DNA of 42,117 nucleotides from Actinomycetota bacterium (GCA_036395715.1 DASWDB010000020.1:1-42117), one strand, 5' to 3'; positions 1 to 28,770 are shown, counted from the stretch's first letter. Translations and numbers: made by a program. Notes: generated by a model not told the origin, from the letters alone.

Positions 1-1
1 G

Positions 2-1624
2 GAGGGGCACGACTACACCGACGCGCTCAACCGTCCGAGCCCCAACCCCTACGCTATCCAGGGCCTCGTTCCCTTCTTCGACGGAGCGAGGCTGATCCTC
101 GGACTGCTGTTCATCGTGGTCATGGGCTTGGCCGTGGCGTCGCTCGTGGTGCGCTTCCGCCGAGGCGACGGGGAAGAACGTGAGCAGATCAAGTGGCTGA
201 TGTTCGCGGGAGCTGCCACCGTGATCTGGTTCGCCCTGCCCCTCAACCATGGGAACGGTGGATGGCCCGACTTCGTCCAGGGATTCGTCCTCGCCCTGAT
301 CCCGTTGTCGATCGGCGTCGCGATCTTGAAGTACCGGCTCTACGACATCGACGTCGTGATCCGCAAGACCGTCGTGTTCGGCGTCCTCGCCGCGTTCATC
401 ACGCTGGTGTACGTCGCGATCGTTCAAGGGCTGGGATCGCTGTTCACCGACACGTTGGTCCTGCGGATCGTGGCGACGGCGCTCGTCGCGGTCGCGTTCC
501 AGCCCGTACGCGATCGCGCGAACCGGCTCGCGAACCGGCTCGTCTACGGGGATCGAGCGACGCCCTACGAGGTGCTCGCGCGCTTCGGCGAGCGCGTCGG
601 CGAGACGTATGCGAGCGACGACGTGCTGCCACGGATCGCACGGGTGATCGCCGAGGGAACCGCGGCGGCCCGTTCGGACGTTTGGCTCCGGCTGGGGGAC
701 AGGCTCACGCTCGCGGCCTCGTGGCCCGTCGTCGAACCGCAGGGTTCGTTCGCGATGGAGGGCGACGAGCTCCCCCCGATCGATGCCGACCGGGTTGCGC
801 CCGTGCGCCACCAGGGAGAGCTCCTCGGCGCGATCGCCGTGACCAAGCCGGCGAGCGAACCGCTCGGCGCCGGGGAAGCCGAGCTCCTGGACCGTCTCGC
901 GGAGCAGGCGGGGCTCGTGCTCGCGAACGCGCGGCTCACCGCCGATCTGGAGGCTCGACTGATGCAGATCGCGCAGCAAGCCGCCGATCTCCGTGCCTCC
1001 CGGCAAAGGATCGTGGCCGCGCAGGACGAGGAACGTCGACGCTTGGAGCGCAACATCCACGACGGAGCCCAGCAGCACCTGGTCGCGCTCGCCGTGAAGC
1101 TTCGCCTCGCGAAGAGCGCCCTCCAGAAGGACCCGGCGCACGGACGACGGATGCTCGAAGAGATCCGCGGAGAGGTCGACGCGGCGTTGGACACCTTGCG
1201 ATCGCTCGCTCTGGGCATCTACCCCCCGCTCCTCGAGGAGCAAGGCATCGCCGCCGCGCTCGCTGCCCAGTACGTGCGGAGCAGTCTGCCCGTCCGGATG
1301 GCGAGCGACGGGATCGGGAGGTATCCGATCGAGCTCGAGGCCGCCGTGTACTTCTGCACCCTCGAGGCGCTGCAGAACGCGGCGAAGTACGCGCACGCGA
1401 GCGCGATCACGATCTCGTTCCGGGAACTGGACGGCGCCCTCGAGTTCAGCGTCGTCGATGACGGTGTCGGCTTCGATCCGACGTCGCGACCGGCGGGAAG
1501 CGGCATCCAAGGGATCCGCGACCGGATGGCGGTGTTCGGTGGGGATGCCGAGATCGCGTCGTCGCCCGGCGCCGGGACCACGGTCGTCGGACGGGTGCCC
1601 GTCCACGAAACGGTGCGGGCATGA
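2..1624 (+). CDS. Sensor histidine kinase paralog 1 (HisKA_3 / NarL-partner type), 5' end cut by window edge
   Basis: The frame is open from nt 2, with no stop upstream of the track start at 116, so the gene is 5' partial. TM segments, an ILKYRLYDIDVVI motif and a GAF-like linker are present. H-box RIVAAQDEERRRLERNIHDGAQQHLVAL, N-box LEALQNAAKYA, G1 DDGVGFD, G2 GSGIQG. The stop overlaps the next start (ATGA at 1621-1624). Confidence 0.9.
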   Translation, partial: EGHDYTDALNRPSPNPYAIQGLVPFFDGARLILGLLFIVVMGLAVASLVVRFRRGDGEEREQIKWLMFAGAATVIWFALPLNHGNGGWPDFVQGFVLALIPLSIGVAILKYRLYDIDVVIRKTVVFGVLAAFITLVYVAIVQGLGSLFTDTLVLRIVATALVAVAFQPVRDRANRLANRLVYGDRATPYEVLARFGERVGETYASDDVLPRIARVIAEGTAAARSDVWLRLGDRLTLAASWPVVEPQGSFAMEGDELPPIDADRVAPVRHQGELLGAIAVTKPASEPLGAGEAELLDRLAEQAGLVLANARLTADLEARLMQIAQQAADLRASRQRIVAAQDEERRRLERNIHDGAQQHLVALAVKLRLAKSALQKDPAHGRRMLEEIRGEVDAALDTLRSLALGIYPPLLEEQGIAAALAAQYVRSSLPVRMASDGIGRYPIELEAAVYFCTLEALQNAAKYAHASAITISFRELDGALEFSVVDDGVGFDPTSRPAGSGIQGIRDRMAVFGGDAEIASSPGAGTTVVGRVPVHETVRA

Positions 1625-3639
1625 GGCGCCGAGCGGCGATCGCGTTCCTGGTGGCGCCGCCGCTCATCCTCGTGGCGGCCTGCGGCGTGAACGCCTGGGC
1701 GGGGAGGAGCTGGGTTGATCCCCTCGAATGGGCACCCCTCGCGCTGGCCTGCGCCGCCGTCGGGTCCCTCCTTTGGCTCCGGCGTGCCGGTGGGGCGATC
1801 GCCGGGCTGTTCATCTACATGGGGATCGGGCTGCCGGTCGGCACGATCGTCGAGGCGTACGCACGAGGGGCGGTCGAACACGGTCTTCCCGGGGCGTCAT
1901 GGGCGGCGTGGCTCTTCCAAACGTCCCTGGGCTTGTCGCTCGGCTTCTACCTGATCCTGCAGCTGTTCCCCACGGGCGCACCCTTGTCACGTCGATGGCG
2001 GGCCCTCGTCTGGCTCACGATCGCGACCGGGGCGGTCGTGCTCCTGACGTCGGCGCTGGGGATGACGCCCGAGTTCACGGCGAACTTCCCGGGGGTGGTG
2101 CATCCGCTCCAGGTCCTCCCCGCCGCAACAACGGATCTCCTCGACGGGATCGGCGGGGCCGGCACGTTGATCTTATTCGTCGCGTCGGCCGTCGAGATCG
2201 TCCTGCGATACCGACGCTCCGCCGGGGAGGGGCGAGCCCAGATGAAGTGGTTCGCCGCGGCCTCTGCATTGGCGGCGGGCGGTTTCATCGTGGGCTTCGC
2301 CACGCTTCCGGACAACCCGGCGATCGCCTTCGCGTTGCTCTCCCCACTGATCCCGATCGCCGCCGGCATCGCGATCCTGAAGTACCACGTCTACGACATC
2401 GACATCGTGATCTCGAAGACGGTGGTCTTCGCGTTGCTCGGCGTGTTCATCGCGGCCGTCTACGTGGCGATCGTGGTCGGGATCGGGACCGTCGCCGGCA
2501 ACACGACGAGCCCCGCACTCTCGATCGCCGCCACCATCCTGGTGGCGGTGTTGTTCCAGCCAGTGCGGGTGCGCGCGCAACGCCTGGCGAACCGGCTGGT
2601 CTACGGCGAGCGGGCCACGCCGTACGAAGTGATGGCGGGCTTCTCCGGACGGGTCGCTGACGCCGTTTCGACCGACCGGGTCCTGCCGCAGATGGCCGAG
2701 GCGGCGGGCCGGGGGGTCGGAGCCGTCGAAGCGTCTGTTCGCGTCCGTCTGCCCGGTGGGCTCGAGCGGGTGGAGCGGTGGTCGGCGCCGGGCGCCACCA
2801 CGGACCGCGTCGCCGAGCCGTTGACGATCACGATCGGTTATCAGGGAGAACCCGTAGGGGACCTGAGCGTGACGAAGTCGCCGACCGACCCCTTGACGCC
2901 GGCGGAGCAGGTGCTCCTGCGCGATCTTGGCGCGCAAGCGGGGCTGGCGCTGCACAACGTCCGATTGTCCGAAGAGCTCGAGACGCGTCTGCGCGAACTG
3001 GACGTGCAGGCCGCGGCGCTGCGCCTGTCGCGTGAGCGCCTGGTCACCGCGCGCGACGCGCAGCGCCGCGGCCTCCAGCGCGATATCCACGAGGGACCCG
3101 AGCGGCAGCTGCTCGACATCCGGCAGCGGCTCCACCAGGTACGCGATGCCGACGAACTGGACGAGCTGATAACGCAGACGAACGACACCCTCGACGGGCT
3201 CCGCGACCTGGCGCGCGGGATCTTCCCGCCGCTCTTGGCCGAGCAGGGTGTCGTCGCCGCGCTCCGAGCCCATATCCGCAAGACGGGGGCGAACGCAACG
3301 GTCGAAGCGGGGCTCGGCTTCGACGATCAGCGCTTCGACGCCGACACCGAGGCGGGTGTGTACTTCTGTTGTCTCCAAGCGATCCAGAACGTGATCCGCC
3401 ATGCGAACAATGCGCCGTGCGTGGTCGCGCTGTCCCGCGATGCGGACGCGATCGCGTTCGAGATCCGCGATGCCGGCCCCGGGTTCGATGTCGCGACCAC
3501 GCCGCGTGGCATGGGCCTGCAGATCGTCCAGGATCGAGTCGACGCACTCGACGGATCCCTGGAGGTCGCAAGCGGCCCGGGACGAGGGACGCGGGTCGCC
3601 GTCCGCCTGCCTATCCGAGAGCTGGAGTCGGTCGGATGA
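1621..3639 (+). CDS. Sensor histidine kinase paralog 2 (HisKA_3 type, divergent DHp)
   Basis: 672-aa ORF. Multi-TM N-terminus with LFPTGAPLSRRWR and ILKYHVYDIDIVI motifs, then RLANRLVYGERATPYEV and a GAF-like region. Divergent H-box LQRDIHEGPERQLLDI, N-box QAIQNVIRHA, G1 DAGPGFD, G2 GMGLQ. ATGA overlaps occur at both ends (1621-1624, 3636-3639). Confidence 0.88.
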   Translation: MRRRAAIAFLVAPPLILVAACGVNAWAGRSWVDPLEWAPLALACAAVGSLLWLRRAGGAIAGLFIYMGIGLPVGTIVEAYARGAVEHGLPGASWAAWLFQTSLGLSLGFYLILQLFPTGAPLSRRWRALVWLTIATGAVVLLTSALGMTPEFTANFPGVVHPLQVLPAATTDLLDGIGGAGTLILFVASAVEIVLRYRRSAGEGRAQMKWFAAASALAAGGFIVGFATLPDNPAIAFALLSPLIPIAAGIAILKYHVYDIDIVISKTVVFALLGVFIAAVYVAIVVGIGTVAGNTTSPALSIAATILVAVLFQPVRVRAQRLANRLVYGERATPYEVMAGFSGRVADAVSTDRVLPQMAEAAGRGVGAVEASVRVRLPGGLERVERWSAPGATTDRVAEPLTITIGYQGEPVGDLSVTKSPTDPLTPAEQVLLRDLGAQAGLALHNVRLSEELETRLRELDVQAAALRLSRERLVTARDAQRRGLQRDIHEGPERQLLDIRQRLHQVRDADELDELITQTNDTLDGLRDLARGIFPPLLAEQGVVAALRAHIRKTGANATVEAGLGFDDQRFDADTEAGVYFCCLQAIQNVIRHANNAPCVVALSRDADAIAFEIRDAGPGFDVATTPRGMGLQIVQDRVDALDGSLEVASGPGRGTRVAVRLPIRELESVG

Positions 3640-5723
3640 GCGACACGGATCGCGAGCGCGCGAACGCACGGAGGATCGCGATCGGGCTCGTCGCGCTCTT
3701 CGTCGCGCTCTGGGTGATCCGTCTGATCCTGGGCATCGCCACCGGCAGCCTGACCGACCAGTCGAGCTGGATCCTGGACCTGATCTTCGACGCCAGCGCG
3801 ATCGTCTTCTCCACGTTGATCCTGCTCGTCGGGTGGGCGATCGTGACCCGACAGCCGAGGAACACGATCGGCTGGCTCCTGATGCTGATCCCGATCCTCG
3901 GGATCCTCGGATTCGTGGTCGGCGATTACGCGACCCAGGCCCTCGCGACCCACCCGGGATCGCTCCCGTTCGGTCGGGTCGCCGCCTGGTTCGATCGTTG
4001 GCTGATCGTCGCCGTCCTCGCGATCTTCATCCCGTTGTTCCTGTTGTTCCCTGACGGGAGGCTCCCGTCGCGACGGTGGCGCCCGGTCCTGTGGTTCACG
4101 ATCGCCGCCACGGTCGTCACCGTGGTCGGGTTCGCCGTGACGCCGGGACGCTTGACCGGCGCCTTCTCCGACCTCACGAGCGTCACGGTGACGAACCCGC
4201 TCGGCATCGATGCGTTCGCCGGGTCGATCGATGTCATCACGCAGCTCGCGGGGATCGCGATCGTGATCAGCGCGTTCCTCGCAGGTGCCGCCATCGTCGT
4301 CCGGTTCCGGGGGGCATCGGGGGAGGTCCGTCAGCAGATCAAGTGGCTCGCGTTCGTGGGGGCCGCGCTCATGGTCGAGTTCGTCGTCGGGATCGTGGTA
4401 ACGGCGATCGTGGGCGACCGGTCCAGCTCGTCGGACACCGTCGGCAACATCCTGTTCGCGATCTGGACCCTCACGCTGCTCGGTGGGATCCCCGTCGCGT
4501 GCGCCATCGCGATCCTCAAGTACCGCCTCTACGACCTCGACGTCGTGGTCCGCAAGGCCGTGGTCTTCGGCCTGCTGGCCGTGTTCATCACCGCCGTCTA
4601 CGCCGCGATCGTCGGCGTGCTGACCACCCAGGTGAGCTCGGCGATCGGCTCGTTCGCCGCGGCTGCGACCTTGGCGGTCCTTTTCGCGCCGGCACGCGAT
4701 CGTGCACGGAGACTCGCCGACCGCCTCGTCTACGGGAAGCGAGCAACCCCGTACGAGGTCTTGGCGGACTTCTCGAGCCGGGTCGGCGAGGCCTATGCCG
4801 CCGACGACGTCTTGGATCGGATGGTGGGCGTCCTGGCCAACGGGACCGGAGCCGAGGTTGCGACCGTCTGGCTGAACGTCTCGAACGACCTCCGGCCCGC
4901 AGCGACGTTCCCCGAGGGAGCCACGCCGGCCGAAGGGACCTCGGTCCCCGTCGTGCATCACGGGGAGGAGCTGGGTGCGCTCTCGATCAGGATGCCCGCG
5001 TCCGACCCGGTCGATCCAACCAAGCGGAAGCTCGTCGAAGACCTCGCGGCGCAGGCGGGTCTGGTGCTCCGGAACGTCCGCCTGATCGAAGAGCTCCGCG
5101 CGTCGCGGCAACGGCTCGTGGCCGCGCAGGACGAAGAGCGGCGCAAGCTGGAACGCAACCTCCACGACGGCGCGCAGCAACAGCTCGTGGCGCTTTCGGT
5201 GCAGCTCAAGCTTGCGGAGCAGCTCGCGGGCAAGGACACCGAGAAGGAGCGAGCACTGCTCGCGAGGCTTGCCTCCCAAGCGAACGGGGCCCTCGCGGAT
5301 CTCCGCGACCTGGCGCGCGGGATCTACCCACCCTTGCTGGCGGACAAGGGGCTGGCCGCGGCGCTCGAGAGCCAAGCGCGGAAAGCCGCCGTGCCCACGA
5401 CCGTCGAAGCCGATCGCATCGGGCGTTACCCGGAGGAGATCGAGTCGACGATCTACTTCTGCACCCTCGAGGCGCTCAACAACGTCGCGAAGTACGCAGA
5501 AGCCGGTCGCGCGATCGTGCGGCTGTCCCAGCCGGACGGCCACGTCGAGTTCACGGTCGACGACGACGGGCGTGGGTTCGATGCCGCTGCGTCGAGCTAC
5601 GGCACCGGCCTGCAGGGGATGGCCGACCGCTTGGATGCGGTCGGCGGCGAGCTGCGGGTCGAGAGCCGTCCGGGGCACGGCACGAGCGTCACCGGGCGGG
5701 TGCCGGTCGGAGAGGCGCGATGA
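3636..5723 (+). CDS. Sensor histidine kinase paralog 3 (HisKA_3 type)
   Basis: Start chosen at ATG 3636 (MSDTDRERANARR...), in frame with track ORF 3369..5723 and overlapping the HK2 stop as ATGA. Motifs: TRQPRNTIGW, LFPDGRLPSRRWR, ILKYRLYDLDVVV, RLVYGKRATPYEV. A GAF-like region follows. H-box RLVAAQDEERRKLERNLHDGAQQQLVAL, N-box LEALNNVAKYA, G1 DDGRGFD, G2 GTGLQGMADR. Confidence 0.9.
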   Translation: MSDTDRERANARRIAIGLVALFVALWVIRLILGIATGSLTDQSSWILDLIFDASAIVFSTLILLVGWAIVTRQPRNTIGWLLMLIPILGILGFVVGDYATQALATHPGSLPFGRVAAWFDRWLIVAVLAIFIPLFLLFPDGRLPSRRWRPVLWFTIAATVVTVVGFAVTPGRLTGAFSDLTSVTVTNPLGIDAFAGSIDVITQLAGIAIVISAFLAGAAIVVRFRGASGEVRQQIKWLAFVGAALMVEFVVGIVVTAIVGDRSSSSDTVGNILFAIWTLTLLGGIPVACAIAILKYRLYDLDVVVRKAVVFGLLAVFITAVYAAIVGVLTTQVSSAIGSFAAAATLAVLFAPARDRARRLADRLVYGKRATPYEVLADFSSRVGEAYAADDVLDRMVGVLANGTGAEVATVWLNVSNDLRPAATFPEGATPAEGTSVPVVHHGEELGALSIRMPASDPVDPTKRKLVEDLAAQAGLVLRNVRLIEELRASRQRLVAAQDEERRKLERNLHDGAQQQLVALSVQLKLAEQLAGKDTEKERALLARLASQANGALADLRDLARGIYPPLLADKGLAAALESQARKAAVPTTVEADRIGRYPEEIESTIYFCTLEALNNVAKYAEAGRAIVRLSQPDGHVEFTVDDDGRGFDAAASSYGTGLQGMADRLDAVGGELRVESRPGHGTSVTGRVPVGEAR

Positions 5724-7960
5724 CCGCTCGAACGGCGACGCTGATCTCTCGGATCGTGATCGGGCTCGGGCTCCTGATGATCGCGGTCGCGATCCTCGTG
5801 AGCCGAACGACGACGTGGCGAGCGGATCCCCACGAGATCGTGGTGATCCCCCAAGGACTCACGTCTCGGGTCGTCGACGCCGCGGCGACCCTTCGGAACG
5901 ATCCCGAGGCTGCGACGGACCCATCGCTGGCCGACGCGCCCGAGGTGATGCAGCACGAGCAGGACCGCGTGGCGCAGGGCGTGAAGCTCACGACCACGGC
6001 CAACTCCCCGGGCGCGGGCATCGTCTTGGTGGTCAGCCTGCTGTGGATGGGGACGGGGAGCGTGATCGTCTCCCGGCAACCTCGCAACCTGGCCGGGTGG
6101 GTGTTCCTCGCGCTCGGCTTCTTGATCGTCCTGGAAGGACTCAGCCAGATCATGGTGTTCGCCGCGTTGAAGGCGGATGCAGGCATCCCACTCGTGTCGG
6201 CATGGGCCATCGCGGGCGAATACGCGGTCTTCCCCATGGTCCTGTTGCCCCTGTTGTGGCTGCTCTTCCCCGACGGCCGGCCGCCCTCGCCACGGTGGCG
6301 CTGGGCGGTGCGCGGGTTCGTCGTCGCGGTGGGAGTCGCCTTGGCCGCCTACGTGGTCACGCCCGGGCCACTGAACAACTTCGTGGACTTCGGGGTCCTG
6401 TACATGAACCCGCTGGCAGTGTCAGCTTTGTCGGGGATCGCGCCCGCGATCACCGGCATCGGCGGCATGATCGCGTTGATCCTCGGGATCGCGACGATCT
6501 TCGGCGTTCGAGGTCGATTCAAGCGGGCGACCGGCGATGAACGGCAGCAGCTCCGCTGGCTCGTCTTCGTCACGACGCTCGCGGGAGTGCTGTTCTTCGT
6601 CATCTTCGGGAGCGGGCTCATCGCCGAGCAGGTCTTCCATCATCCGAACCCGCATGTGGGCGGCGTCGATGTCTTCGACCTGCTGTTCGGCCTGTTGGCG
6701 GGGCTGATCGTGCTCGGGATCCCCGGTGCCTATCTGATCGCGATCTACCGCTACCACCTCTGGGACCTCGACGTCGTGATCAAGAAGGCGCTGGTCTTCG
6801 CCGTCGTGGCGGGAGGTCTCACGGTCGTGTCGCTCGGCGTGCTCCTGCTTCTCCCAGTGCTGGTCGTCGGAACCGGCCTGACGTCCACGGAGCGTGGCGT
6901 CTTCGTCGTCGGGGTCGTGATCGGAACGCTGTTCGGTCCGCTTCGGCGTCTCGCGCGGCGAGCCGCCGACCGCGCCGTGTACCACACGCGGGCGACCCCG
7001 TACGAGGTTCTCACCGAATTCAGCGGCCGCGTCGGCGAGACGTACGCGACGGACGATGTGTTGCCGCGTATGGCGCAGATCCTCGCGACCGGCGCCGGCG
7101 CGTCGTCGGCCCGGGTGCTCCTCTCGGTTGGGGGCGACCTGCGCGAAGCCGCCGCGTTCGGCGGACCTGTGAACGGAACGGAACATCTCGTCGCGGTCAC
7201 GCACCAGGGCCGAGAGCTGGGAGCGCTCGCGGTGACGATGCCGGCTAACGATCCGATGGATCCGACCAGGGAGAAACTCGTGCACGATCTCGCCGCCCAG
7301 GCGGGACCCGTGCTGCGGAACGTCGGACTGATCGAGGAGCTCCGGGCGTCACGTCAGCGCCTCGTCGCCGCCCAGGACGAGGAGCGACGCAAGATCGAGC
7401 GAAACCTCCACGATGGCGCTCAGCAGCAGCTGGTGGCGCTCGCGGTGCAACTGAAGCTGCTGGAGCAGACCGCGGGGAAGGATCCCGACCGCGACCGGCG
7501 GCTCGCCGCGACGCTCGGCTCCCAGGCCAGCGCGGCGCTCGAGGACTTGCGCGATCTGGCCCGGGGGATCTACCCGCCGCTCCTCGCCGACAAAGGTCTG
7601 TCCGCCGCGATCGAGGCGCAGGCGCGCAAGGCGGCCATCCCGGTGGAGGTCGGATCGAACGTCGCCGCGCGGTACCCACGAGACGTCGAGTCCGCCGTGT
7701 ACTTCTGCATCCTCGAAGCCCTGAACAACGTGGCGAAGTACGCGCAGGCGACCAGCGCCACCGTCACCCTCGCTCAGGCGGACGGCCACCTCACGTTCGA
7801 GGTCAGCGACGACGGAGCGGGGTTCGATCCCGACGACGCGCGCAACGGGACCGGGCTGCAAGGGATGGCCGACCGCCTCGATGCGATCGGAGGTTCGCTC
7901 ACGATCCGCAGCGTCCCCGGACTGGGCTCGACCGTCGGGGGCACGGTACCCATCTCCTAG
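5720..7960 (+). CDS. Sensor histidine kinase paralog 4 (HisKA_3 type)
   Basis: Start chosen at ATG 5720 (MTARTATLISRIV...), in frame with track ORF 4076..7960 and overlapping the HK3 stop as ATGA (5720-5723). Motifs: SRQPRNLAGW, LFPDGRPPSPRWR, IYRYHLWDLDVVI, RATPYEV. A GAF-like region follows. H-box RLVAAQDEERRKIERNLHDGAQQQLVAL, N-box LEALNNVAKYA, G1 DDGAGFD, G2 GTGLQGMADR. Confidence 0.9.
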   Translation: MTARTATLISRIVIGLGLLMIAVAILVSRTTTWRADPHEIVVIPQGLTSRVVDAAATLRNDPEAATDPSLADAPEVMQHEQDRVAQGVKLTTTANSPGAGIVLVVSLLWMGTGSVIVSRQPRNLAGWVFLALGFLIVLEGLSQIMVFAALKADAGIPLVSAWAIAGEYAVFPMVLLPLLWLLFPDGRPPSPRWRWAVRGFVVAVGVALAAYVVTPGPLNNFVDFGVLYMNPLAVSALSGIAPAITGIGGMIALILGIATIFGVRGRFKRATGDERQQLRWLVFVTTLAGVLFFVIFGSGLIAEQVFHHPNPHVGGVDVFDLLFGLLAGLIVLGIPGAYLIAIYRYHLWDLDVVIKKALVFAVVAGGLTVVSLGVLLLLPVLVVGTGLTSTERGVFVVGVVIGTLFGPLRRLARRAADRAVYHTRATPYEVLTEFSGRVGETYATDDVLPRMAQILATGAGASSARVLLSVGGDLREAAAFGGPVNGTEHLVAVTHQGRELGALAVTMPANDPMDPTREKLVHDLAAQAGPVLRNVGLIEELRASRQRLVAAQDEERRKIERNLHDGAQQQLVALAVQLKLLEQTAGKDPDRDRRLAATLGSQASAALEDLRDLARGIYPPLLADKGLSAAIEAQARKAAIPVEVGSNVAARYPRDVESAVYFCILEALNNVAKYAQATSATVTLAQADGHLTFEVSDDGAGFDPDDARNGTGLQGMADRLDAIGGSLTIRSVPGLGSTVGGTVPIS

Positions 7961-7979
7961 GGCGCCCACACGTCGGCCG

Positions 7980-9530
7980 TCAGGACGGTCCCCCGCCCGT
8001 CACCGGCAGAACGCCCGTGACGCGGGTGCCTTTCCCGACGGCCGAATCCACGCGGAGCGACCCGCCCAACGCTCCGAGCCTGTCCACCATGTTCTGGAAA
8101 CCGGCGCCCATCCCCTTGCCCCGCACATCGAAGCCGGCGCCGTCGTCGCTCACCGTGAAGACCAGGCCGGCTTCCTCCTCGCGAACATCCACCGTCACGG
8201 ACGCCGCTTCCCCCGCGTACTTGCCGGCATTCTGGAGCGCCTCGAGGACGCAGAAGTAGACCGTTGCCTCGGCTTCGGCCGGATAGCGTGTGAGGTCGTC
8301 CGTGCGGACCATCGTCGGCCGGACCGCACGCCGTGCCGCTGAGGCGAGGGCCTCCTTGAGCCCCTTGTCCGCGAGCAGGGGTGGGTAGATCCCGTGGGCG
8401 AGGTCGCGCAGCTCCTGCAGCGTGTCGTCGACCGCCACCGACAGGCCGTCGAGAACCTGGACCGCCCGTTCTGGATCAGCGTCGAGCATCGTCCGGGCGA
8501 GCTTCGCCTTGATGCCGAGCGCCACCACGTGCTGCTGTGCTCCATCGTGGAGGTTGCGCTCGATCTGGCGGCGGGCCTCGTCGGCGGCCGCGACGATCCG
8601 TCCGCGTGACGCTTGCAGCTCCTCGGCTTGGCGACGCACTTCGTCGAGCGAAGCCTGGAGCGCGGAGTCGAGCCGCGCGTTGTGCAACGCCACGCCGAGC
8701 ATCCGCCCCAACTCGATGACCGTGCGCTCCTCCTCGGGTGAGAAAGAATCGGCAACCGTGACCGCGCGCTCCACCACGATGACGCCCTGAAGCTCCCCGG
8801 CGTGTGACATCGGGGCCATACGGACGAACGCGTCCTCGCGACCCTCGAGCATCGCCGGGAGCCACACCTTCATCCACCCGTGGCCGGAGAGGCCCGCCTG
8901 GACGACCGTCCCAGGATCGAGTCCACGCAACTGCATCGGCGGCGGCCCGAAGTCCGGATCGCCGATCCACGGGTGGAGTGTCCCCTCATGCACGGTCCAC
9001 AGCTCGACGGCCTGCAGGTGCAGCTCCGCTCGAAGGGACTCGGCGACCTGCAGCGCCAACTCATCCAAGGGGACCGCGCGCGTCATGCGCGACGTGAGCG
9101 TCCGCACGAGGTCACCGTCCGCGCGATGATCCCTCGCGACGAACCGGCGGGCAGCCCGTTCGAGGCGTGGGTATAGGGAGCGATACGCGAGGGCGGCGAA
9201 CGAAACGACGAGGAGCGCAAGCCCGAGGAACCACCGCTCGCCCTCGACCGGGCTTCGTCCTGCCAGGAGGAGCACGGCGGCATACGCACCGGCTGCGACC
9301 ACGAACAGCCCCGCCAGCGACACCGACGCGACGAAGGCGCCGTCGGCCGCGTGGGCAACCCATCCTCCGCGCAGCGAGAGCCCTGCGGGGACGACGGCGA
9401 GGAGACCGGGCGTTCCCGCGAGCCAAAGAGGCCACGTCCACCCGAGCAGACCGCCGAAGAGCGAGGCGACGCCGACCCCGACGAGCGACACCACGAGCCC
9501 GCACGCCAGCCACTTGGCCCACGCGTGCAC
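7980..9530 (-). CDS. Sensor histidine kinase 5 (HisKA_3 type), last gene of the ABC-transporter operon
   Basis: Start chosen at GTG 9530 (VHAWAKWLAC...), 2 nt after the TAA stop (9533-9535) of the upstream permease. A different, shorter TM sensor is followed by a GAF-like region. H-box RIVAAADEARRQIERNLHDGAQQHVVAL, N-box LEALQNAGKYA, G1 DDGAGFD, G2 GMGAGFQNM. The track ORF 7980..10811 simply runs on upstream, overlapping the permease gene in another frame. Confidence 0.85.
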   Translation of the reverse strand: MHAWAKWLACGLVVSLVGVGVASLFGGLLGWTWPLWLAGTPGLLAVVPAGLSLRGGWVAHAADGAFVASVSLAGLFVVAAGAYAAVLLLAGRSPVEGERWFLGLALLVVSFAALAYRSLYPRLERAARRFVARDHRADGDLVRTLTSRMTRAVPLDELALQVAESLRAELHLQAVELWTVHEGTLHPWIGDPDFGPPPMQLRGLDPGTVVQAGLSGHGWMKVWLPAMLEGREDAFVRMAPMSHAGELQGVIVVERAVTVADSFSPEEERTVIELGRMLGVALHNARLDSALQASLDEVRRQAEELQASRGRIVAAADEARRQIERNLHDGAQQHVVALGIKAKLARTMLDADPERAVQVLDGLSVAVDDTLQELRDLAHGIYPPLLADKGLKEALASAARRAVRPTMVRTDDLTRYPAEAEATVYFCVLEALQNAGKYAGEAASVTVDVREEEAGLVFTVSDDGAGFDVRGKGMGAGFQNMVDRLGALGGSLRVDSAVGKGTRVTGVLPVTGGGPS

Positions 9531-9532
9531 GG

Positions 9533-11992
9533 TTATTCCGCCCGGAGGACGGCGGCCGGCCGCGTCCGCCGGGCCGCGATCGCGGGCCCGAGGCCCACGA
9601 CCACCGCAAGCCCGATCGTCGCGGGGATCACGAGTGCGACGGCCCCCCACGCGATGACCGGCTCCACGATGACCCCGAGCCGGTCGGCGAACAGACCCCA
9701 CGCCAACCTCCCGAGCAAGATGCCGGTCGGCACGCCGATCGCGAGCGCGACGGCGGCCAGGGTCGCCGATTGCCATGCGACGGTCCACATCACCTGCCCT
9801 CGCTTGAACCCGAGCGTACGCAGGATCGCCAGATCGCGACGCCGTCGCCGCACGGAGGAGATCAACAGGTGGACGAGCGTGCCCAACGCGACGACGGCGA
9901 ACAACGCGGCCAACAGGAGCGGAAGCCGCTCCGACCGCAGCGCATCCCGCACCCGGAACCCCTGCGATCCGACGTCGCCTTCGACGGTGTTCGCGCCGAG
10001 CGGGTCCAAGACCCGGTTGACGCGCTCGTAGGTCGCCGACACATCCGCTCCGCGCGCGAACGTCGCGAGGACCAGGTTCTGGGTCGCATCCGGATAGAAC
10101 ACGTGGAGCCCGTCCATCGTCATCCCCGCACCCTGTCCCAGCCCGGTGCCGAAGCCGATGTCGGGGAAGACCGGGATGCCGACGACGGTCATCGGGATCG
10201 TCGTCTGACCTGCCTGAACCTGAACCTGGTTTCCGATCCCGACCCCGAGGGCCCGCGCGGTCTCCTGACCCAACGCCACTTCGTCGGACCGGTCGGGCCA
10301 GCGTCCGTCCCGCATCGACGTGTGCACGAGGGGCCCGCGGAGCGGCTCGAGAGCCCACGCGAAGACGTGTGCGCTGCCGCACGGGCCAGCGACATCCAGC
10401 GCGTTCTGGAAATTGCCGGCGGTCACGGCGTCGAACCCCGGATCCCCCTCCACCGCCGGGACCGCCTTGTCCTCGAAGCGGCTGCCGATGTAGGGGTGCC
10501 CGGCTGCGAACGCGAAGTCCACACCCCACAACCTGGGCGTGCTGCCGAAATGAACCGCACTCGCCGCGAACCCGAACGCACCGACCATCGCCGCCACGGC
10601 GATCGCGAGTCCGACCACGGCGCTCCGAACGGGGACCGCCGTTCGCCCGTGCCCGGGCTCGAGGGCCAGTCGTGAACCGGCGACCGCGGTCGGGGGCATC
10701 CCCACCCGAGCGAACGCGGCCGCGATACGCGACGGCCGCTCCGCACCGGCAAGCTCCGCCGTCCCCAGCACACCGGCGCGGGCCCCGGCCATGCGCCACC
10801 CCGTGATCCATGAGACGAGCACCGCACCCGCGGCGATGAGGCCGCCACCGATCACCAGGATCTCGCCGTCTGCGTGGATGCCCGGTGTGGGCTCGATGAA
10901 GCGCGCGAAGCCGAGCGGCGTGAGCGGCGACACCGCGATCGTCGCGATCACCGCGATGAGAGCGCCGCCGATCCCGACGATCGCGCCGGGGATCAGCGCC
11001 GCGTTCGCCACCTGACGCCGCGTCATCCCGAGCGCGCGAAGGATCGGATCCTCGTTGGCGCCGAGCACGATCCGTCGCACGAGCGCCTGTCCGAGAACGA
11101 GGGCCCCGGCCAGGGCCACGAGCACCCCGAAAAGCCTGGCCACGATCGCGACGAGGTGCGTCTTGCCCGAGGCCGCCGCGGCCTCGTCGGACAGGTTGAA
11201 CGAGTTAACGCCCGGCCGGATGGAGGACACGCCACGCAGGAACGGGTCGACGTCGTGGAGGCCACCACGGAGATGGAACACTCCCTCCGTGCAACTCACG
11301 GTTCCCCGTCCGTAGGTCTGGACGAACGCCGCAGATGCCACGAGACCGTTGTCGTCCCCGCTCAACCCGCCGAAGGGGATGTACTCGCCGACGACGCTCA
11401 AACGCACCGGGGGCAGGAACGCCCCCTCCGGGGGCTCACCTCCGCCCGTGTAGCGGATGGCGCGATCGAGGTGACGGACGTTCACGAGACGTACGACCAC
11501 GGTGTCTCCGACGTGCGCGCGTGGCCCGTCCGTGGTCCCCCATCCGATCGCAACCTCGTTCGCCCGCTCGGGAGCTCGGCCGTTCAAGAACAGCGGCGAG
11601 CCGAGCTCCTGTAGGCCTCCCGGCGCCGTCGGGGCTTCCATCGACCCTTCGGGGGAATCTCGGTAGAAGAGGGGTGTCTTCCCGTCTGCAGCGAAGAAGA
11701 GCCCCACCGGCGTGACCCACGCGCGAGCCCACGACGCCACCTGGGGAAGTTTCGCCGCCTGTTCGAAGGGTGCCGCCGCCCCGAAGCCCAACGCCGGCGG
11801 GCATCCGATGAGCACCACGTCGGGCTCGCGGGTCGCCGCTCGATACCGGTCGTAAGCGGAATCCGTCCGCCGAGCCGCCGCCACCGACGTCATGGCTGCG
11901 GCCCCTGCGAGACCCGTGAGCACCGTGAGCACGATCAAGGACGTTCGCCGCGTGCGCATGTCGGCTCGCGCGCGCATCCCGAACGCGCTCAT
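9533..11992 (-). CDS. ABC transporter permease with two FtsX-type domains (MacB-like fused permease)
   Basis: 819 aa. N-terminal TM, a large extracytoplasmic region, and two blocks of four TM helices, each preceded by the LRALGMTRRQV / LRTLGFKRGQV type FtsX signature. The ATG overlaps the ATPase stop (ATGA, 11989-11992). Confidence 0.85.
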   Translation of the reverse strand: MSAFGMRARADMRTRRTSLIVLTVLTGLAGAAAMTSVAAARRTDSAYDRYRAATREPDVVLIGCPPALGFGAAAPFEQAAKLPQVASWARAWVTPVGLFFAADGKTPLFYRDSPEGSMEAPTAPGGLQELGSPLFLNGRAPERANEVAIGWGTTDGPRAHVGDTVVVRLVNVRHLDRAIRYTGGGEPPEGAFLPPVRLSVVGEYIPFGGLSGDDNGLVASAAFVQTYGRGTVSCTEGVFHLRGGLHDVDPFLRGVSSIRPGVNSFNLSDEAAAASGKTHLVAIVARLFGVLVALAGALVLGQALVRRIVLGANEDPILRALGMTRRQVANAALIPGAIVGIGGALIAVIATIAVSPLTPLGFARFIEPTPGIHADGEILVIGGGLIAAGAVLVSWITGWRMAGARAGVLGTAELAGAERPSRIAAAFARVGMPPTAVAGSRLALEPGHGRTAVPVRSAVVGLAIAVAAMVGAFGFAASAVHFGSTPRLWGVDFAFAAGHPYIGSRFEDKAVPAVEGDPGFDAVTAGNFQNALDVAGPCGSAHVFAWALEPLRGPLVHTSMRDGRWPDRSDEVALGQETARALGVGIGNQVQVQAGQTTIPMTVVGIPVFPDIGFGTGLGQGAGMTMDGLHVFYPDATQNLVLATFARGADVSATYERVNRVLDPLGANTVEGDVGSQGFRVRDALRSERLPLLLAALFAVVALGTLVHLLISSVRRRRRDLAILRTLGFKRGQVMWTVAWQSATLAAVALAIGVPTGILLGRLAWGLFADRLGVIVEPVIAWGAVALVIPATIGLAVVVGLGPAIAARRTRPAAVLRAE

Positions 11993-12744
11993 GACGAACC
12001 GTCGTCCCCAAGCACTCCGAACACGCCCCTCGGTGCGACGGCAGGTTCCGCGTCATCGTCGAGTCGACCGTCCTTCATTCGGACGACCCGTGTTGCGGTC
12101 GCCGCCACGACCTCGTTGTGCGTGACCATGACGATCGTCTGTCCGTCGGCGTGCAATCGTCGGAATAACTCGAGCACCTCGCCGCCGCCGGCAGAGTCGA
12201 GCGAACCGGTGGGCTCGTCCGCGAGCAGCAGGGTGGGAACGTTCGCCAACGCACGTGCGATCGAAAGGCGCTGACGTTGGCCCCCCGACAAGACACCAGG
12301 CGACTTCGCCGACTTGTCCGCTATCCCCAGCAGGTCCAAGAGGTCGCGAGCGCGCGTCTCCGCCTGCTTGCGAGGCCGCCCCGCGACGACCGCCGGGAGC
12401 GCGACGTTCTCGAGCACCGTCATCCCCTCCAACAGGTTGAAGAACTGGAAGACGATCCCGATGTGCCGTCGCCGCATCACCGCGAGATCGTCCTCGGACA
12501 GGCCCTCGAGCGACTCTCCCGCGACCCGGATCTGCCCGGCCGTTGGCCTATCCAGGCCGGCGATCAGGTTCAGCAGGGTCGACTTGCCGCACCCGGACGG
12601 GCCCATCACCGCGATGAATTCTCCTGCCGAAACCGCGAGGTCCAGGCCCCGAAGCGCCCGCACGGGGATCTGCTCGTCATCGGGAGCATCGAAGGTCTTC
12701 CGGAGCCCCTCGACCTCGAGTGCATCGACCGTGGCCGGGTCCAT
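11989..12744 (-). CDS. ABC transporter ATP-binding protein (MacB/LolD-like)
   Basis: Walker A GPSGCGKST, Q-loop, ABC signature LSGGQRQRLSIARAL, Walker B LLLADEPTGSLD, H-loop VMVTHN. Confidence 0.93.
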   Translation of the reverse strand: MDPATVDALEVEGLRKTFDAPDDEQIPVRALRGLDLAVSAGEFIAVMGPSGCGKSTLLNLIAGLDRPTAGQIRVAGESLEGLSEDDLAVMRRRHIGIVFQFFNLLEGMTVLENVALPAVVAGRPRKQAETRARDLLDLLGIADKSAKSPGVLSGGQRQRLSIARALANVPTLLLADEPTGSLDSAGGGEVLELFRRLHADGQTIVMVTHNEVVAATATRVVRMKDGRLDDDAEPAVAPRGVFGVLGDDGSS

Positions 12745-12793
12745 GCCTGGAGGCTAGGCCGTGCCTGGGTCGCCGTCGACGGGAAGGGCACCA

Positions 12794-12806
12794 CTCCCGC
12801 CGGGAG
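12794..12806 (-). other. Palindrome CTCCCG-C-CGGGAG between the REC gene and the ABC ATPase gene
   Basis: 13-bp perfect palindrome sharing the CTCCCG/CGGGAG arms with the 13261-13276 palindrome. The loop is too short for a good hairpin, so it fits a dimeric protein operator better. Confidence 0.3.
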
Positions 12807-12819
12807 GCAGGCACCCGCA

Positions 12820-13191
12820 TCAGACGTGGGTGGCGGCCTCCCAAGCGGTCTCGAGACGGTCCGGGCCGAAGACCGCCTTAGGGATGTATGCGGCCGCGCC
12901 GCATTCAGCAGCGCGGGGCGCGTATTCCTCTTCCTCGTACGTCGAGAGCAGCAACACCACGGGTGCCCCCTCGGCGGCGAGGATGCGGCGGGTCGCTTCG
13001 AGCCCGTCGATCCCGGGCAGGTTCACGTCCATCAGCACGAGGTCGGGTGCGAGGTCGGCCGCCATCGTCACGGCGTCCTCGCCGGTCTCCGCCTCTCCGA
13101 CGACGTCGAATCCATCGGTGACGTCGACCACCATGCGCGCGGCAAGCCGGAAGGGCTCTTGGTCATCGACGATCAACACACGAACGGGCAT
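12820..13191 (-). CDS. Stand-alone receiver-domain response regulator (NarL-type REC, no output domain)
   Basis: Start chosen at ATG 13191 (MPVRVLIVDDQ...), preceded by GGAGATCCAG; the track start 13251 adds 20 non-REC residues. Acidic pocket DD, phospho-acceptor context LVLMDVNLPGIDG, LLLST and IPK motifs. The protein stops after the receiver, and only 75 nt remain before the next gene, so there is no room for an HTH. Confidence 0.85.
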   Translation of the reverse strand: MPVRVLIVDDQEPFRLAARMVVDVTDGFDVVGEAETGEDAVTMAADLAPDLVLMDVNLPGIDGLEATRRILAAEGAPVVLLLSTYEEEEYAPRAAECGAAAYIPKAVFGPDRLETAWEAATHV

Positions 13192-13234
13192 CTGGATCTC
13201 CAGGTCAAGCGTCGCAGAGGACCTCGCGGCTGAC

Positions 13235-13276
13235 AGTGGTGCCAGCACCACTCCGAGACGCTCCCGCGCGCGGGAG
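13235..13276 (-). terminator. Two adjacent GC-rich inverted repeats just downstream of the Pro-rich protein gene
   Basis: A perfect 16-bp palindrome, CTCCCGCGCGCGGGAG (13261-13276), begins 5 nt after the stop. It is followed by AGTGGTGC-ca-GCACCACT (13235-13252). There is no U-tract, so the terminator role is tentative. Confidence 0.3.
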
Positions 13277-13280
13277 GAGC

Positions 13281-14660
13281 TCAGGATGGATGCTGCTCGT
13301 CCGCTTCGCGGCGCTCCTTCGAACCCGGCTTCTTGAGCGCGGCGGTTCTCGCAAGTTTCGCGCGCAGGTCGCCCGGAGCGTCGGTGGGACCGTGTTCGGT
13401 CACGGGTTCCACGAGCCGGTCGAGCATGTCCGAGGCCGATTCCTTGCCGCTCGACGTCCGGGCGTGCTGCAGTTCGGGGACGATCACGACGGCGGGCCTA
13501 CCGATCGCAGGGGTCGGTTCGGCGTCCGCGACGGGTGCGGGCTCAGGTTCCCGGGTGACGATCGGCTCAGGCGCGGGAGCCGGTTCCGGCGGTGGAACGA
13601 TGGGGGCCGGCTCGGGCTGCGGTGTTTCCGCGACGTGTGCAGGCGCGACCGGCTTCGGAGCCGGAACCGCCACGGGTCTCGGCTTGCGCTTCGGCGCTCG
13701 TTCTTCCTTGGGAACCCGCGGCGCTCGGCGGCGTCGTGCGGGGGCCGGCTCGGGCTGCGCCGCCTCGACGACCTCGGAAAGCGGCGGCTGCGGCTCTGGC
13801 ACGGGCATCCGACGGCCCGGTGTCGCGAGCGCAGCCAGAGCTTGCTGCAGTTGGCCTTCGCCACGGAGGCGTTCGGCCTCGCTCTCCTCCAACTTGTGCT
13901 GGAGCGACGTGACGCGTTCCTTGATGCGACCGCCCGCGTGTTGGATCTCGACGGCGCGATCGGCATCCATCAGCGTGAGGTATCTCGGCACCGACTCGGG
14001 GTAGAAGGGCACGCCGGTCCCGATCTTCGCCGCCGGCTCGCGCATCGACAAGAACGAGAAGGTCAAAGCCAACAGGAAGCCGAGGCCGAGCGCGATCTGA
14101 TAGCCCAGCCATGCGAACCGAACGTCCGAGGTCAGCGTCGCGTCGCGGTACTCGAACTGCGTGACGAGGGACCGTCCCCCGATCGCCGTGTACGAGTAGT
14201 AGGTCGCGGGCCCGGGCTCGTTCGTGGGTGTCCGCTTCGTGACCACCCACGTCGGGCCGCCGGCTGCTTGGATCGCCGCGTCGATGTCGCGGTCGTTCAG
14301 CGAGTGAGCGGAATCGAGTGGCTCGTGAAGCGAGGACCACAGCAGGAAGTGTTGCTGGGACCAGATCCGGACCGCCCTGATCCGGGTGTCGTTCACGAGG
14401 ATCTCGTCGCGAACCTCCTTGGTCAGCGAGTCGCTCAGCGATCCCGTGATCGGCGCCGAAGCCGAGGCCGACGCGACGCTCGGCGCGATCACCCGTTGGC
14501 TGAGGGCGGCATCGACCGCCGCTGTGTCGCGATGCCGCGCGGCGACCGCGCGGTGCTCGGCGGGGAACGTCACGACGAACAGGACGAGGAGCACCATGGT
14601 GAAGGGCCACCACACCTTGGCGCTGACGTCATCCAGCGTGAACCGGTCGATGAAGCGCAT
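13281..14660 (-). CDS. Hypothetical two-TM membrane protein with coiled-coil and Pro-rich (PEPAP-type) cytoplasmic tail
   Basis: Start chosen at ATG 14660 (MRFIDRFTLDD...), preceded by GAGGAGGGACGCCAGGGGG. The upstream part of track ORF 13281..15719 overlaps holB, on the same strand but in another frame. TM1 WWPFTMVLLVLFVV, then a ~170-aa extracytoplasmic segment, then TM2 LGYQIALGLGFLLALTFSFL. A heptad-like segment (KERVTSLQHKLEESEAERLRGEGQLQQ) and a P/E/A/K-rich low-complexity region follow. I recognised no known domain. Confidence 0.6.
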   Translation of the reverse strand: MRFIDRFTLDDVSAKVWWPFTMVLLVLFVVTFPAEHRAVAARHRDTAAVDAALSQRVIAPSVASASASAPITGSLSDSLTKEVRDEILVNDTRIRAVRIWSQQHFLLWSSLHEPLDSAHSLNDRDIDAAIQAAGGPTWVVTKRTPTNEPGPATYYSYTAIGGRSLVTQFEYRDATLTSDVRFAWLGYQIALGLGFLLALTFSFLSMREPAAKIGTGVPFYPESVPRYLTLMDADRAVEIQHAGGRIKERVTSLQHKLEESEAERLRGEGQLQQALAALATPGRRMPVPEPQPPLSEVVEAAQPEPAPARRRRAPRVPKEERAPKRKPRPVAVPAPKPVAPAHVAETPQPEPAPIVPPPEPAPAPEPIVTREPEPAPVADAEPTPAIGRPAVVIVPELQHARTSSGKESASDMLDRLVEPVTEHGPTDAPGDLRAKLARTAALKKPGSKERREADEQHPS

Positions 14661-14755
14661 CCCCCTGGCGTCCCTCCTCAGCCGCCCGACGGTTGAGGGT
14701 ACCTTCCCAGGTCGGGTGGGTCGACGGCCGGAAGTCGGTCGGACTGGCGAAAGAC

Positions 14756-15871
14756 CTACCTGCGTTCCTCGACCGAGAGCTGCAAGAACGCTCGTTCCAC
14801 GACGAGCCGGGGGTTGAGGTTGACGTCGTCGGCGAGGGCCGCCCTCGCCTCCTCCATCGCCGCGATGCCCGCCACGGTCCTCGTCGGCGAGCGTTCCTCG
14901 GGTGCCTCCCGGTCCGGGTTCAACAAGGCGTCGGCGGTCACCCCCGTCCCGGCGGCGACGGCGTCGCGCAGCAAGGCCGACGCCGCCATCAGCACGCGAT
15001 CGAGGTGATCTCGTTCCGCTCGACGCTCCCGGCGGTGGAACCGGGTCTCGATCCTCCGGATCGAGCCCCGGTAGGCCTCCTCGGGCCGTCCCTTCTCGTC
15101 GAGGAACGGCGCGAGCTCGGCATCGAGTTCGCGCGCCAGTCCCTTCTTGTGCTCGGCCGCCGCCGCGATCACCGTGTCGGCGGCCTCGAGCGCGCCAGCC
15201 GGTCCCGCGGATCCGAGCTCGAGCGCGTGCGCCGCCACATCGCGGAACGCGAGCCCGTCCTCGTCCACGGCCATCCGCCGTGCGCGGCCGAGGTTCCCGC
15301 CCGCAAGTCGGGCCGCGAGCCGTGCCCGGGCCCGCGCGATGCCCTCGGCCTCGAGCTGTTCGACCACGAATGGCTCGCTGAGCGCCGTGAAGGTCACGAC
15401 GTGACACCGGCTCCAGATCGTCTCCGGGAGCTCGTGCGCCCGCGCGGAGAGCAGCAGGAAGACGGCATCCGCGGGAGGCTCCTCCAGGACCTTGAGCAGC
15501 GTGTCGGCGGCTGCGGGCGAGAGCCGGTCGGCCTCGCGGATCAGGAACACCTTCCGGCCGGGCTCCGGCGCGGTCAGGTAGGCGGGATGCCACACCTCGT
15601 CGCGCACCGTCTCCACGTGGATGTCGCGTCCCTCGGGCTCGACCACGAACTCGTTCGGATGCCGGTCGTGGAGCGCGAGACGGCAGTCGCGGCACTCGCC
15701 GCACCCGCCGTTCGCACACAGGAGCGAGGCCGCGAAGGCACGGGCGGCGAGCGACTTCCCTGAGCCTTCGGGCCCGGCGAAGACGTAGGCGTGATGCGGA
15801 CGTTCGGCCGCCCCGCGGAGGAACGCCATGGCGGCGTCCTGTCCCGGAACCTGGTCGAGCACGGTCTGCAC
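14756..15871 (-). CDS. holB: DNA polymerase III subunit delta prime
   Basis: HAYVFAGPEGSGKS Walker-type box, zinc-module-like CANGGCGECRDC, KVFLIREADRL, LLKVLEEPP, SRC motif (WSRCHVV). It sits downstream of tmk, as is typical in Actinobacteria. The start is uncertain: GTG 15871 (VQTVLDQVPGQD) or ATG 15829. Confidence 0.85.
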   Translation of the reverse strand: MQTVLDQVPGQDAAMAFLRGAAERPHHAYVFAGPEGSGKSLAARAFAASLLCANGGCGECRDCRLALHDRHPNEFVVEPEGRDIHVETVRDEVWHPAYLTAPEPGRKVFLIREADRLSPAAADTLLKVLEEPPADAVFLLLSARAHELPETIWSRCHVVTFTALSEPFVVEQLEAEGIARARARLAARLAGGNLGRARRMAVDEDGLAFRDVAAHALELGSAGPAGALEAADTVIAAAAEHKKGLARELDAELAPFLDEKGRPEEAYRGSIRRIETRFHRRERRAERDHLDRVLMAASALLRDAVAAGTGVTADALLNPDREAPEERSPTRTVAGIAAMEEARAALADDVNLNPRLVVERAFLQLSVEERR

Positions 15872-17960: not shown

Positions 17961-17976
17961 GGGCGGCCGGGCCTCC

Positions 17977-24912: not shown

Positions 24913-24934
24913 GGTCGCTGATGCTACGCGGCGA

Positions 24935-27051: not shown

Positions 27052-27081
27052 GGGCGAACGCTACCGCCCACGCGGTGGCCG

Positions 27082-27147
27082 TTCACGCCTACGGGGCATT
27101 CACGACATCTTCACGCCACCGGCGGCTTCCTTCACGCCCCGCTCACG
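27082..27147 (+). promoter_or_regulatory. Array of TTCACG hexamers with 11/21-bp phasing (candidate OmpR-family regulator binding sites)
   Basis: TTCACG at 27082, 27099, 27110 and 27131, and CTCACG at 27142. Start-to-start spacings are 17, 11, 21 and 11 bp. Three copies extend to TTCACGCC. The array lies 31-96 nt upstream of the short kinase start, in the divergent region shared with trkA. Confidence 0.45.
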
Positions 27148-27272
27148 TCCGATGCCGGAGCCTACTCATCGGAAAGAGGTTTTCTGCCGGGTGGGTCGCG
27201 TGGCCGTCACCCCTAGGCGATTCGCCGGGCAGGATGGGTACATCCACCACTTTCCTCCGAGCCCGTCTTCGG

Positions 27273-28719: not shown

Positions 28720-28770
28720 CGGGGCTCAGCTGTCGGGAGTCGTCGGCCGTCAGGGCTCGGTCGTCGGCGA

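Follow-up and report, generated by a model that had tools for sequence, protein, structure and literature searches.

What a run of four adjacent, translationally coupled histidine kinase genes does with no regulator beside it is the question raised by the 5' end of a 42,117-nucleotide (nt) stretch of DNA from an Actinomycetota bacterium (GCA_036395715.1 DASWDB010000020.1:1-42117), which was analysed in full and is referred to as the window. An earlier reading made from the sequence alone (the sequence-only reading) described these genes, designated here as HK1 to HK4, as tandem paralogous sensor kinases of the HisKA_3 class with no cognate regulator. In the present analysis, HK1 to HK4 were found to correspond to the last four genes of an eight-kinase array present in relatives, where a LuxR-type response regulator (RR) is encoded upstream and a stand-alone receiver at the 3' end. 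They probably represent the promoter-distal half of a conserved multi-kinase operon, a multi-input network in which a small number of receivers would be shared and HK2 would be a non-canonical partner subunit; this reading is favoured here with reasonable, though by no means high, confidence.

The gene set of the window (G+C content, 69%) was derived from a scan of G+C content by codon position and a list of open reading frames (ORFs). The four consecutive plus-strand genes described previously were recovered within nt 2-7960 with all array ORFs intact, and the 4-nt ATGA overlaps reported at every junction proved exact (Table 1). The two motifs quoted for the proteins, ILKYRLYDxDVV and RLVYGxRATPYEV, were present in all four with variants, as ILKY(R/H)(L/V)YDxD(V/I)V and R(L/A)VY(G/H)xRATPYEV, respectively, HK4 carrying the variant form IYRYHLWDLDVV. 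HK1 lacks about 160 N-terminal residues. This gene is interrupted by a contig end, which is where the window starts, and an independent 19-kb ENA contig (L001), encoding an identical HK3, begins at the same base. Thus, HK1 is cut by the contig end, and the four genes taken as the size of the array are a lower bound. An exact-match search of JGI metagenome contigs with the 5' end of the window returned no spanning contig, so that the upstream structure rests on relatives. As to the break shared by the two contigs, a simple collapse of repeats is unlikely in view of the low DNA identity between the paralogs (see below). A consensus scan of nt 1-15000 gave no promoters and terminators at the level of shuffled sequence, such a scan being uninformative in DNA of this G+C content.

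Homologues of HK3 number in the thousands, nearly all from soil metagenomes. In JGI contigs Ga0207684_10000025 and Ga0070707_100000743, the orthologs of HK1 to HK4 are genes e, f, g, and h, that is, genes 5 to 8 of an eight-kinase array, which is the array of the closest complete relative. HK1, HK2, and HK4 share 78%, 77%, and 79% identity with kinases e, f, and h, respectively, and HK3 shares 83% to 85% with kinase g. The eight proteins, a to h, have 695, 686, 685, 676, 702 (the HK1 ortholog, in L085/L002), 672, 695, and 746 amino acids (aa), and a 4-nt overlap occurs at seven of the seven junctions. Upstream of the array lie an opposite-strand Usp gene, separated from the divergent gene of kinase a by about 180 nt, and, on the array strand, a gene for a 227-aa REC+GerE (LuxR-type) regulator; divergent from the latter in relatives are genes for a REC-HTH-class III cyclase and a further kinase of the family, designated as z. 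Downstream, convergent with the array, are the stand-alone receiver gene, the gene for protein X, holB, tmk, and topA. An array of four kinases in the same surroundings was observed on a 1-Mb contig of a 65%-identical relative and one of about seven kinases on long-read contigs of metagenome-assembled genomes (MAGs), L089 and L090, and the order a to h is kept in several independent assemblies (JGI short-read, ENA, and long-read). The cyclase gene, in the region of nt 690-4068 of L085 and at equivalent positions in L005, L009, L034, and L058, overlaps that of kinase z; its product has a LuxR-like HTH and a receiver domain closely paralogous to the one in the LuxR regulator (EDN...TDIxMPP), suggesting a second-messenger output of the same network.

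A survey of one genome per GTDB species yielded 79 loci, all from MAGs and labelled only Actinomycetota or Actinomycetes but for three, which were annotated with hidden Markov models built from the proteins of the window and of L002/L005/L085. In 33 loci, the array is preceded, on its own strand and at a distance of at most 1.5 kb, by a LuxR-type RR gene, with the Usp gene between the two in 31. In the window, which ends before that position, a GerE/LuxR domain was detected by Pfam in none of the 29 predicted genes, but the related loci do not support the absence of a cognate regulator. The sequence-only reading had regarded a LuxR-type regulator upstream of HK1 as evidence against its proposal; by synteny with the relatives one is placed there, beyond the edge of the window. 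Copy number varied among the 23 arrays closed at both ends, with one kinase in four loci, two in six, three in three, four in seven, five in one, and seven in two, the eight-gene case being additional; seven or eight kinases are found in the closest clade, and more distant relatives have one to five. The family also includes kinases that occur singly at dispersed positions, no receiver being encoded within 10 kb of them.

A receiver is also present in the window, encoded in the same minus-strand operon as a fifth family kinase, HK5; both had been overlooked previously. The receiver possesses the acidic pocket DD, the acceptor Asp in LMDVNLPG, and the conserved S/T and K, and its best NCBIfam matches were UvrY/GacA, CheB, and NarL. 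Among seven loci of the HK3-based survey it is 79% to 88% identical and adjoins the array at its 3' end; in the window it is 4.9 kb downstream. When metagenome contigs were searched with the receiver as query, independently of the kinases, 28 ortholog loci had 700 bp or more of downstream sequence; a convergent family kinase directly followed the receiver in 20 of these, including all 12 loci at 75% identity or above; in several loci of lower identity, the receiver is instead back-to-back with a LuxR RR. These results indicate that the stand-alone receiver, as judged from its genomic linkage, is a stable part of the signalling locus.

HK1 to HK4 are old paralogs, each under purifying selection. 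They share 37% to 54% protein identity and at most 77% DNA identity, the longest intergene DNA repeat being 77% identical over 300 nt. Identity among paralogs is 28% to 41% in the sensor regions versus 44% to 82% in the dimerisation and histidine phosphotransfer domain (DHp). Synonymous sites are saturated (proportion of synonymous differences, pS, 0.5 to 0.68); for the DHp of HK3 and HK4, pS is 0.58 and the ratio of nonsynonymous to synonymous substitutions (dN/dS) is 0.12. Between orthologs, dN/dS is 0.10 to 0.24 for the linker and the kinase core of all four genes, and the sensors evolve faster than the core (0.19 to 0.58). An old duplication under purifying selection, as had been read from the sequence, is thereby confirmed. 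The near identity ascribed to the DHp and the catalytic and ATP-binding (CA) domains of HK3 and HK4 applied to the DHp, which is 82% identical and contains the quoted string exactly (RASRQRLVAAQDEERRK[L/I]ERNLHDGAQQQLVAL), and not to the CA domain, with 59% identity. Recent gene conversion as the source of the DHp identity was rejected on the basis of the DNA identity and the synonymous saturation. In all array kinases except HK2, helix 1 of the DHp follows the consensus ERN[IL]HDGAQQ[QH]LVAL, with a mean identity of 76% among the canonical paralogs, including z and HK5, versus 40% to 54% overall; HDGAQQQL was found in 158 of 200 family kinases.

The kinases combine a conserved catalytic core with a sensor of unfamiliar type. 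HK1 has a polytopic sensor, a linker module containing RATPYEV, a HisKA_3 DHp (E-value, 1.1e-13), and an HATPase_c domain (2.4e-09). HATPase_c scored above the Pfam cut-off in all five kinases, HK1 to HK5, with N, G1, and G2 boxes visible in alignments, so that the HATPase attributed to the four array proteins was correct. Scores for HisKA_3 (PF07730) were 51.9, 51.7, 51.7, and 47.8 bits for HK1, HK3, HK4, and HK5, respectively, against a gathering cut-off of 24 bits, and the phospho-acceptor His is present in these kinases; a HisKA_3 DHp had been assigned to all four array members, which stood for HK1, HK3, and HK4 but not for HK2. The sequence H-D-G-A-Q-Q (DxxxQ motif) occurs in the same four canonical kinases; in work on NarX, a DxxxQ phosphatase motif directly after the His is reportedly a feature of the HisKA_3 class. 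Equivalogs of NCBIfam (MctS, UhpB, LiaS, NarX/Q, MadS, and MacS) were rejected, since they matched the kinase core only and far under their cut-offs; for example, that of MctS, the kinase regulating pyruvate transport in rhizobia, scored 99 to 116 bits against a cut-off of 700.

The multi-helix sensor described previously was likewise borne out, the proteins being polytopic. HK3 was predicted to have 10 transmembrane (TM) helices with both termini inside and with the conserved sensor motifs all located in short, K/R-rich cytoplasmic loops; HK4 has an additional extracytoplasmic loop of about 70 aa following TM1. An AlphaFold2 model of HK3 based on 77 homologues (mean pLDDT, 86) comprised a membrane bundle of helices, a small linker module of alpha/beta type, and a long helix leading into the DHp. 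The linker module had been termed GAF-like, a label that was not upheld, as Pfam GAF matches to it were partial and below threshold. In a fold search against the PDB, the kinase core of HK3 best matched structures of DesK (E about 1e-9) and the CA domain of VraS (TMt 0.85), whereas the 10-TM sensor had no structural match among the best 50 PDB matches of the full-length model, all of which were to the kinase core (DesK, VraS, and HK853). Pfam searches with the sensor alone and with sensor-only homologues gave no family, and membership of HK1 in HisKA_7TM was rejected (16 bits versus a cut-off of 28.6). The motifs of the cytoplasmic loops are LFPDGxxxSxRWR, RFRxxxGExRxQxKW, and ILKYRLYDxD, and in a library clustered at 50% the sensor family comprises 13,021 representatives at E<=1e-3, the number at E<=1e-10 being 6,527. 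Many of its members (P0271, P0274, P0279, and others) have only about 400 aa and no Pfam domain, and would be either sensors with no kinase output or fragments. HK3 and HK4 also lack a 14-residue segment, equal to two heptads, of the helix connecting linker and DHp (alignment columns about 620 to 640) that is present in HK1, HK2, and HK5; the alignment implies that, within one array, the signalling helix differs in helical register or in length.

HK2 departs from this pattern. Its H-box reads IHEGPERQ versus LHDGAQQQ in the others, the DxxxQ motif being lost (H-E-G-P-E-R) and Pro occupying the position His+3. It gave no Pfam match to HisKA_3 even at E<0.01, only to HATPase_c, and a precomputed HisKA_3 match was available for only 5 of its 120 best homologues. 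Among 109 homologues with a locatable H-box, the acceptor position was occupied by H in 44, Q in 31, R in 28, E in 2, S in 2, Y in 1, and N in 1; that is, the His was replaced in 65 (60%). The ATP-binding motifs were kept in these same sequences (N-box in 102, G1 in 106, and G2 in 93). In arrays of more distant MAGs, the gene corresponding to kinase f (f-type) encodes Q (L005) or R (L009, L010, L034, and L079) at the acceptor position, and in every locus observed it is internal to the array. Orthologs of HK2 showed dN/dS of 0.24 for DHp plus CA and 0.17 for the linker. From these comparisons, HK2 is a conserved array member that is not a canonical HisKA_3 kinase, and the acceptor His appears to be dispensable in its clade. 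The loss of the His with retention of the ATP site points to a function exerted without a His of its own, probably on or through another kinase; thus, HK2 most likely acts via a partner kinase and not autonomously, although, retaining the His itself, it could still autophosphorylate. The f-type branch, with well over a hundred sequence clusters, is a candidate family of bacterial histidine pseudokinases.

In the favoured reading, kinases with different, fast-evolving 10-TM sensors would work in parallel, each as an input acting by phosphorylation or dephosphorylation on a small common set of receivers; transcriptional output would come from the LuxR regulator, the stand-alone receiver would be a shared hub or a phosphate sink, and HK2 would exert its effect via a partner kinase, whether by modulation or by trans-phosphorylation. 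According to work of the Laub laboratory, partner specificity is said to lie for the most part in the portion of DHp helix 1 below the His and in the start of helix 2. A nearly invariant helix 1 in kinases with diverged sensors suggests that they are most likely not insulated from each other and address the same few receivers. The overlaps in the window, kept in relatives, are consistent with a single operon yielding one transcript.

Several observations weigh against this network of shared receivers. DHp helix 1 is invariant throughout the family, including the dispersed singletons mentioned above, and its invariance may reflect a structural or family constraint rather than a shared partner. 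HK2 itself keeps the acceptor His. The LuxR RR and kinases a to d would lie outside the window, being placed there from relatives, and, as the Usp gene stands between on the opposite strand, the LuxR gene is not co-transcribed with the array. The stand-alone receiver may functionally belong to the side of X and holB and not to the kinases.

The proposal of the sequence-only reading, namely an orphan array with no dedicated regulator in which near-identical dimerisation helices plus coupled translation lead to heterodimers and combinatorial sensing with one output, is favoured by the ATGA coupling at every junction, by the highly conserved DHp of the canonical paralogs, and by the f-type branch, which, lacking the His and binding ATP, makes most sense with a partner. 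It is regarded here as unlikely, because its orphan premise fails in view of the LuxR RR upstream in related loci and the receiver conserved at the 3' end, the CA domains of HK3 and HK4 are far from identical, and similarity of the DHp by itself does not predict heterodimers. Paralogous kinases reportedly homodimerise specifically as a rule, again according to the Laub laboratory. A precedent for tandem kinase-like proteins that heterodimerise does exist, namely FasBC of group A Streptococcus (PMC12675982), and a related possibility, also doubtful, is that the array makes hetero-oligomeric sensor complexes in which HK2 pairs with its coupled neighbours and either trans-phosphorylates them or gates the balance of kinase and phosphatase activity, with one output on the LuxR RR and the receiver. 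If true, an eight-gene operon would compute one output from many membrane inputs, a combinatorial receptor array of a kind not so far reported for two-component systems.

Tandem duplication could also have produced insulated parallel pathways, the locus being a duplication hot spot in which each kinase has its own receiver elsewhere and the neighbouring regulators serve one or two of them. The diverged sensors and the many dispersed single members with no nearby receiver are in keeping with this, as are surveys in which crosstalk was rare in general and kinases from expanded families were frequently orphans (PMC1630713). The near invariance of DHp helix 1, normally the site where specificity diverges after duplication, argues otherwise, as do the tight 4-nt coupling, the gene order kept across assemblies, and the linkage of the array to the same three receivers while copy number runs from 1 to 8, so that insulated pathways seem quite improbable. 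An artefact, either a mis-assembled or collapsed repeat or a set of decaying pseudogenes, is a very remote prospect. Although the window and the ENA contig break at the same base in HK1 and frameshifted fragments occur in the long-read MAG loci, the same gene order was obtained from JGI short-read, ENA, and long-read assemblies, the paralogs are too different in DNA sequence to collapse, and the ORFs in the window are intact with ortholog dN/dS of 0.1 to 0.6. With these alternatives weighed, the multi-input network converging on a few shared receivers is retained as the probable reading of the locus.

Table 1. Coordinates of the kinase array and of the convergent operon in the window
Feature	Position (nt)	Strand	Description
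HK1	2..1624	+	5' end cut at window edge; ortholog of kinase e, fifth of eight in relatives
ATGA stop/start overlap HK1/HK2	1621..1624	+	sequence read at junction
HK2	1621..3639	+	ortholog of kinase f; atypical kinase-like paralog; sensor, linker, and HATPase_c intact, DHp degenerate
ATGA stop/start overlap HK2/HK3	3636..3639	+	sequence read at junction
HK3	3636..5723	+	ortholog of kinase g; 10-TM sensor, linker module, HisKA_3 DHp, HATPase_c
ATGA stop/start overlap HK3/HK4	5720..5723	+	sequence read at junction
HK4	5720..7960	+	ortholog of kinase h; final array gene; polytopic sensor, HisKA_3 DHp, HATPase_c
HK5	7980..9530	-	fifth family kinase, convergent with HK4; HisKA_3 2.1e-12, HATPase_c 6.9e-11
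FtsX/MacB-type ABC permease	9533..11977	-	Pfam FtsX, MacB_PCD; same operon as HK5 and receiver
ABC transporter ATPase	11989..12744	-	Pfam ABC_tran 2.4e-36
Stand-alone receiver	12820..13191	-	REC only, 123 aa; Pfam Response_reg 1.9e-23
Protein X	13281..14660	-	N-terminal TM helix, domain of about 200 aa, coiled coil, long Pro/Ala/Glu-rich tail

HK5 is 19 bases past HK4, and no obvious hairpin was found in this convergent spacer. It possesses the DHp of the family (ERNLHDGAQQHVVAL) and a CA domain, the 10-TM sensor being replaced by a short N-terminus of about four TM helices. The gene is the last of a tightly packed minus-strand operon encoding, in order, X, the stand-alone receiver, the ABC ATPase, the MacB/FtsX permease, and HK5. 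Protein X gave no Pfam or NCBIfam match; its gene is upstream of the receiver gene and downstream of holB, and is kept beside the receiver in L002, L005, L051, L089, and L090. The ABC genes and HK5 are absent from L002 and L005. From this gene arrangement, HK5 plus the ABC genes looks like an inserted Bce-like sensing module that captured the stand-alone receiver. Its likeness to Bce-type systems, which concerns the inserted module only, lies in a kinase with a short membrane anchor that shares its operon with an ABC ATPase, a MacB/FtsX permease, and a receiver; it differs in that HK5 is of the HisKA_3 class with a linker module and the receiver has no DNA-binding domain. In L093 and L113, too, HK5-like kinases are found beside FtsX in the vicinity of the receiver.

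Farther upstream on the minus strand are holB, a gene for a fusion of a major facilitator superfamily (MFS) transporter with thymidylate kinase, and topA. The fusion protein (nt 15918-17978, minus strand; 686 aa), in which the MFS domain is N-terminal, was observed between holB and topA in all related loci. A cluster that appears to be potassium-related occupies nt 22573-34440. It includes KdpD/KdpE (nt 28771-31964), two TrkA genes (nt 27317-28719), and, at nt 24935-27024, a second kinase with DUF4118 and no KdpD N-domain together with an OmpR-type regulator, and is flanked by genes for two AA_permease_2 proteins of about 780 aa (nt 22573-24897, minus strand, and nt 32077-34440, plus strand). 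No kdpFABC genes were found in the window.

The locus resembles several known systems in part. With the DesK/NarX/LiaS-VraS class (HisKA_3) the array kinases share the catalytic core, the 10-TM sensor having no Pfam model. The AbrC kinases are of the NarL class, and KinA to KinE of Bacillus subtilis, acting on Spo0F, constitute a multikinase network. AbrC1/AbrC2/AbrC3 of Streptomyces coelicolor comprises two kinases and one regulator (PMC4428217). By description, it is likewise an actinomycete locus in which a single RR is served by more than one adjacent kinase; it has two kinases versus up to eight here, and no coupled array, His-less member, or stand-alone or cyclase-fused receiver has been described for it. 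In FasB/FasC/FasA of group A Streptococcus, the tandem kinase-like products heterodimerise, one of them being a pseudokinase, and both feed one regulator (PMC12675982). This is the best precedent for the partner-dependent role proposed for HK2, whose gene is coupled by ATGA to adjacent kinase genes. The Fas system, however, has two members and belongs to Firmicutes, and the kinase domain of one Fas partner is dispensable, whereas the HK2 clade loses the His and keeps the ATP-binding domain. PMC5898713 describes the Pak kinases of Sphingomonas, acting on PhyR, as a multikinase network, and regulation of one kinase by another through DHp contacts is known for GacS-RetS of Pseudomonas aeruginosa (cited in PMC12675982). 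Several sensor kinases with different inputs acting on one receiver or stand-alone hub is also what may occur here; the genes of KinA-E, Pak, and GacS/RetS are scattered over the genome and do not form an operon of close paralogs, unlike the array, with up to eight coupled paralogs.

Expanded kinase paralogs are generally unclustered, save at the B. subtilis kin locus, according to Alm et al. (PMC1630713), and literature searches on tandem kinase arrays yielded no description of arrays of the present type. What differs from known multikinase systems is scale and form, namely up to eight coupled paralogs, a variable copy number, and an embedded His-less branch. All carriers found are MAGs of uncultured soil bacteria, which is a practical limit. 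Kinase families that have expanded are normally scattered, with insulated paralogs (PMC1630713), whereas the paralogs of this array retain that portion of the DHp in which divergence normally insulates pathways. The array lends itself, as a system found in nature, to the questions of how many inputs a single two-component output can integrate and whether sensor arrays grow by tandem duplication.

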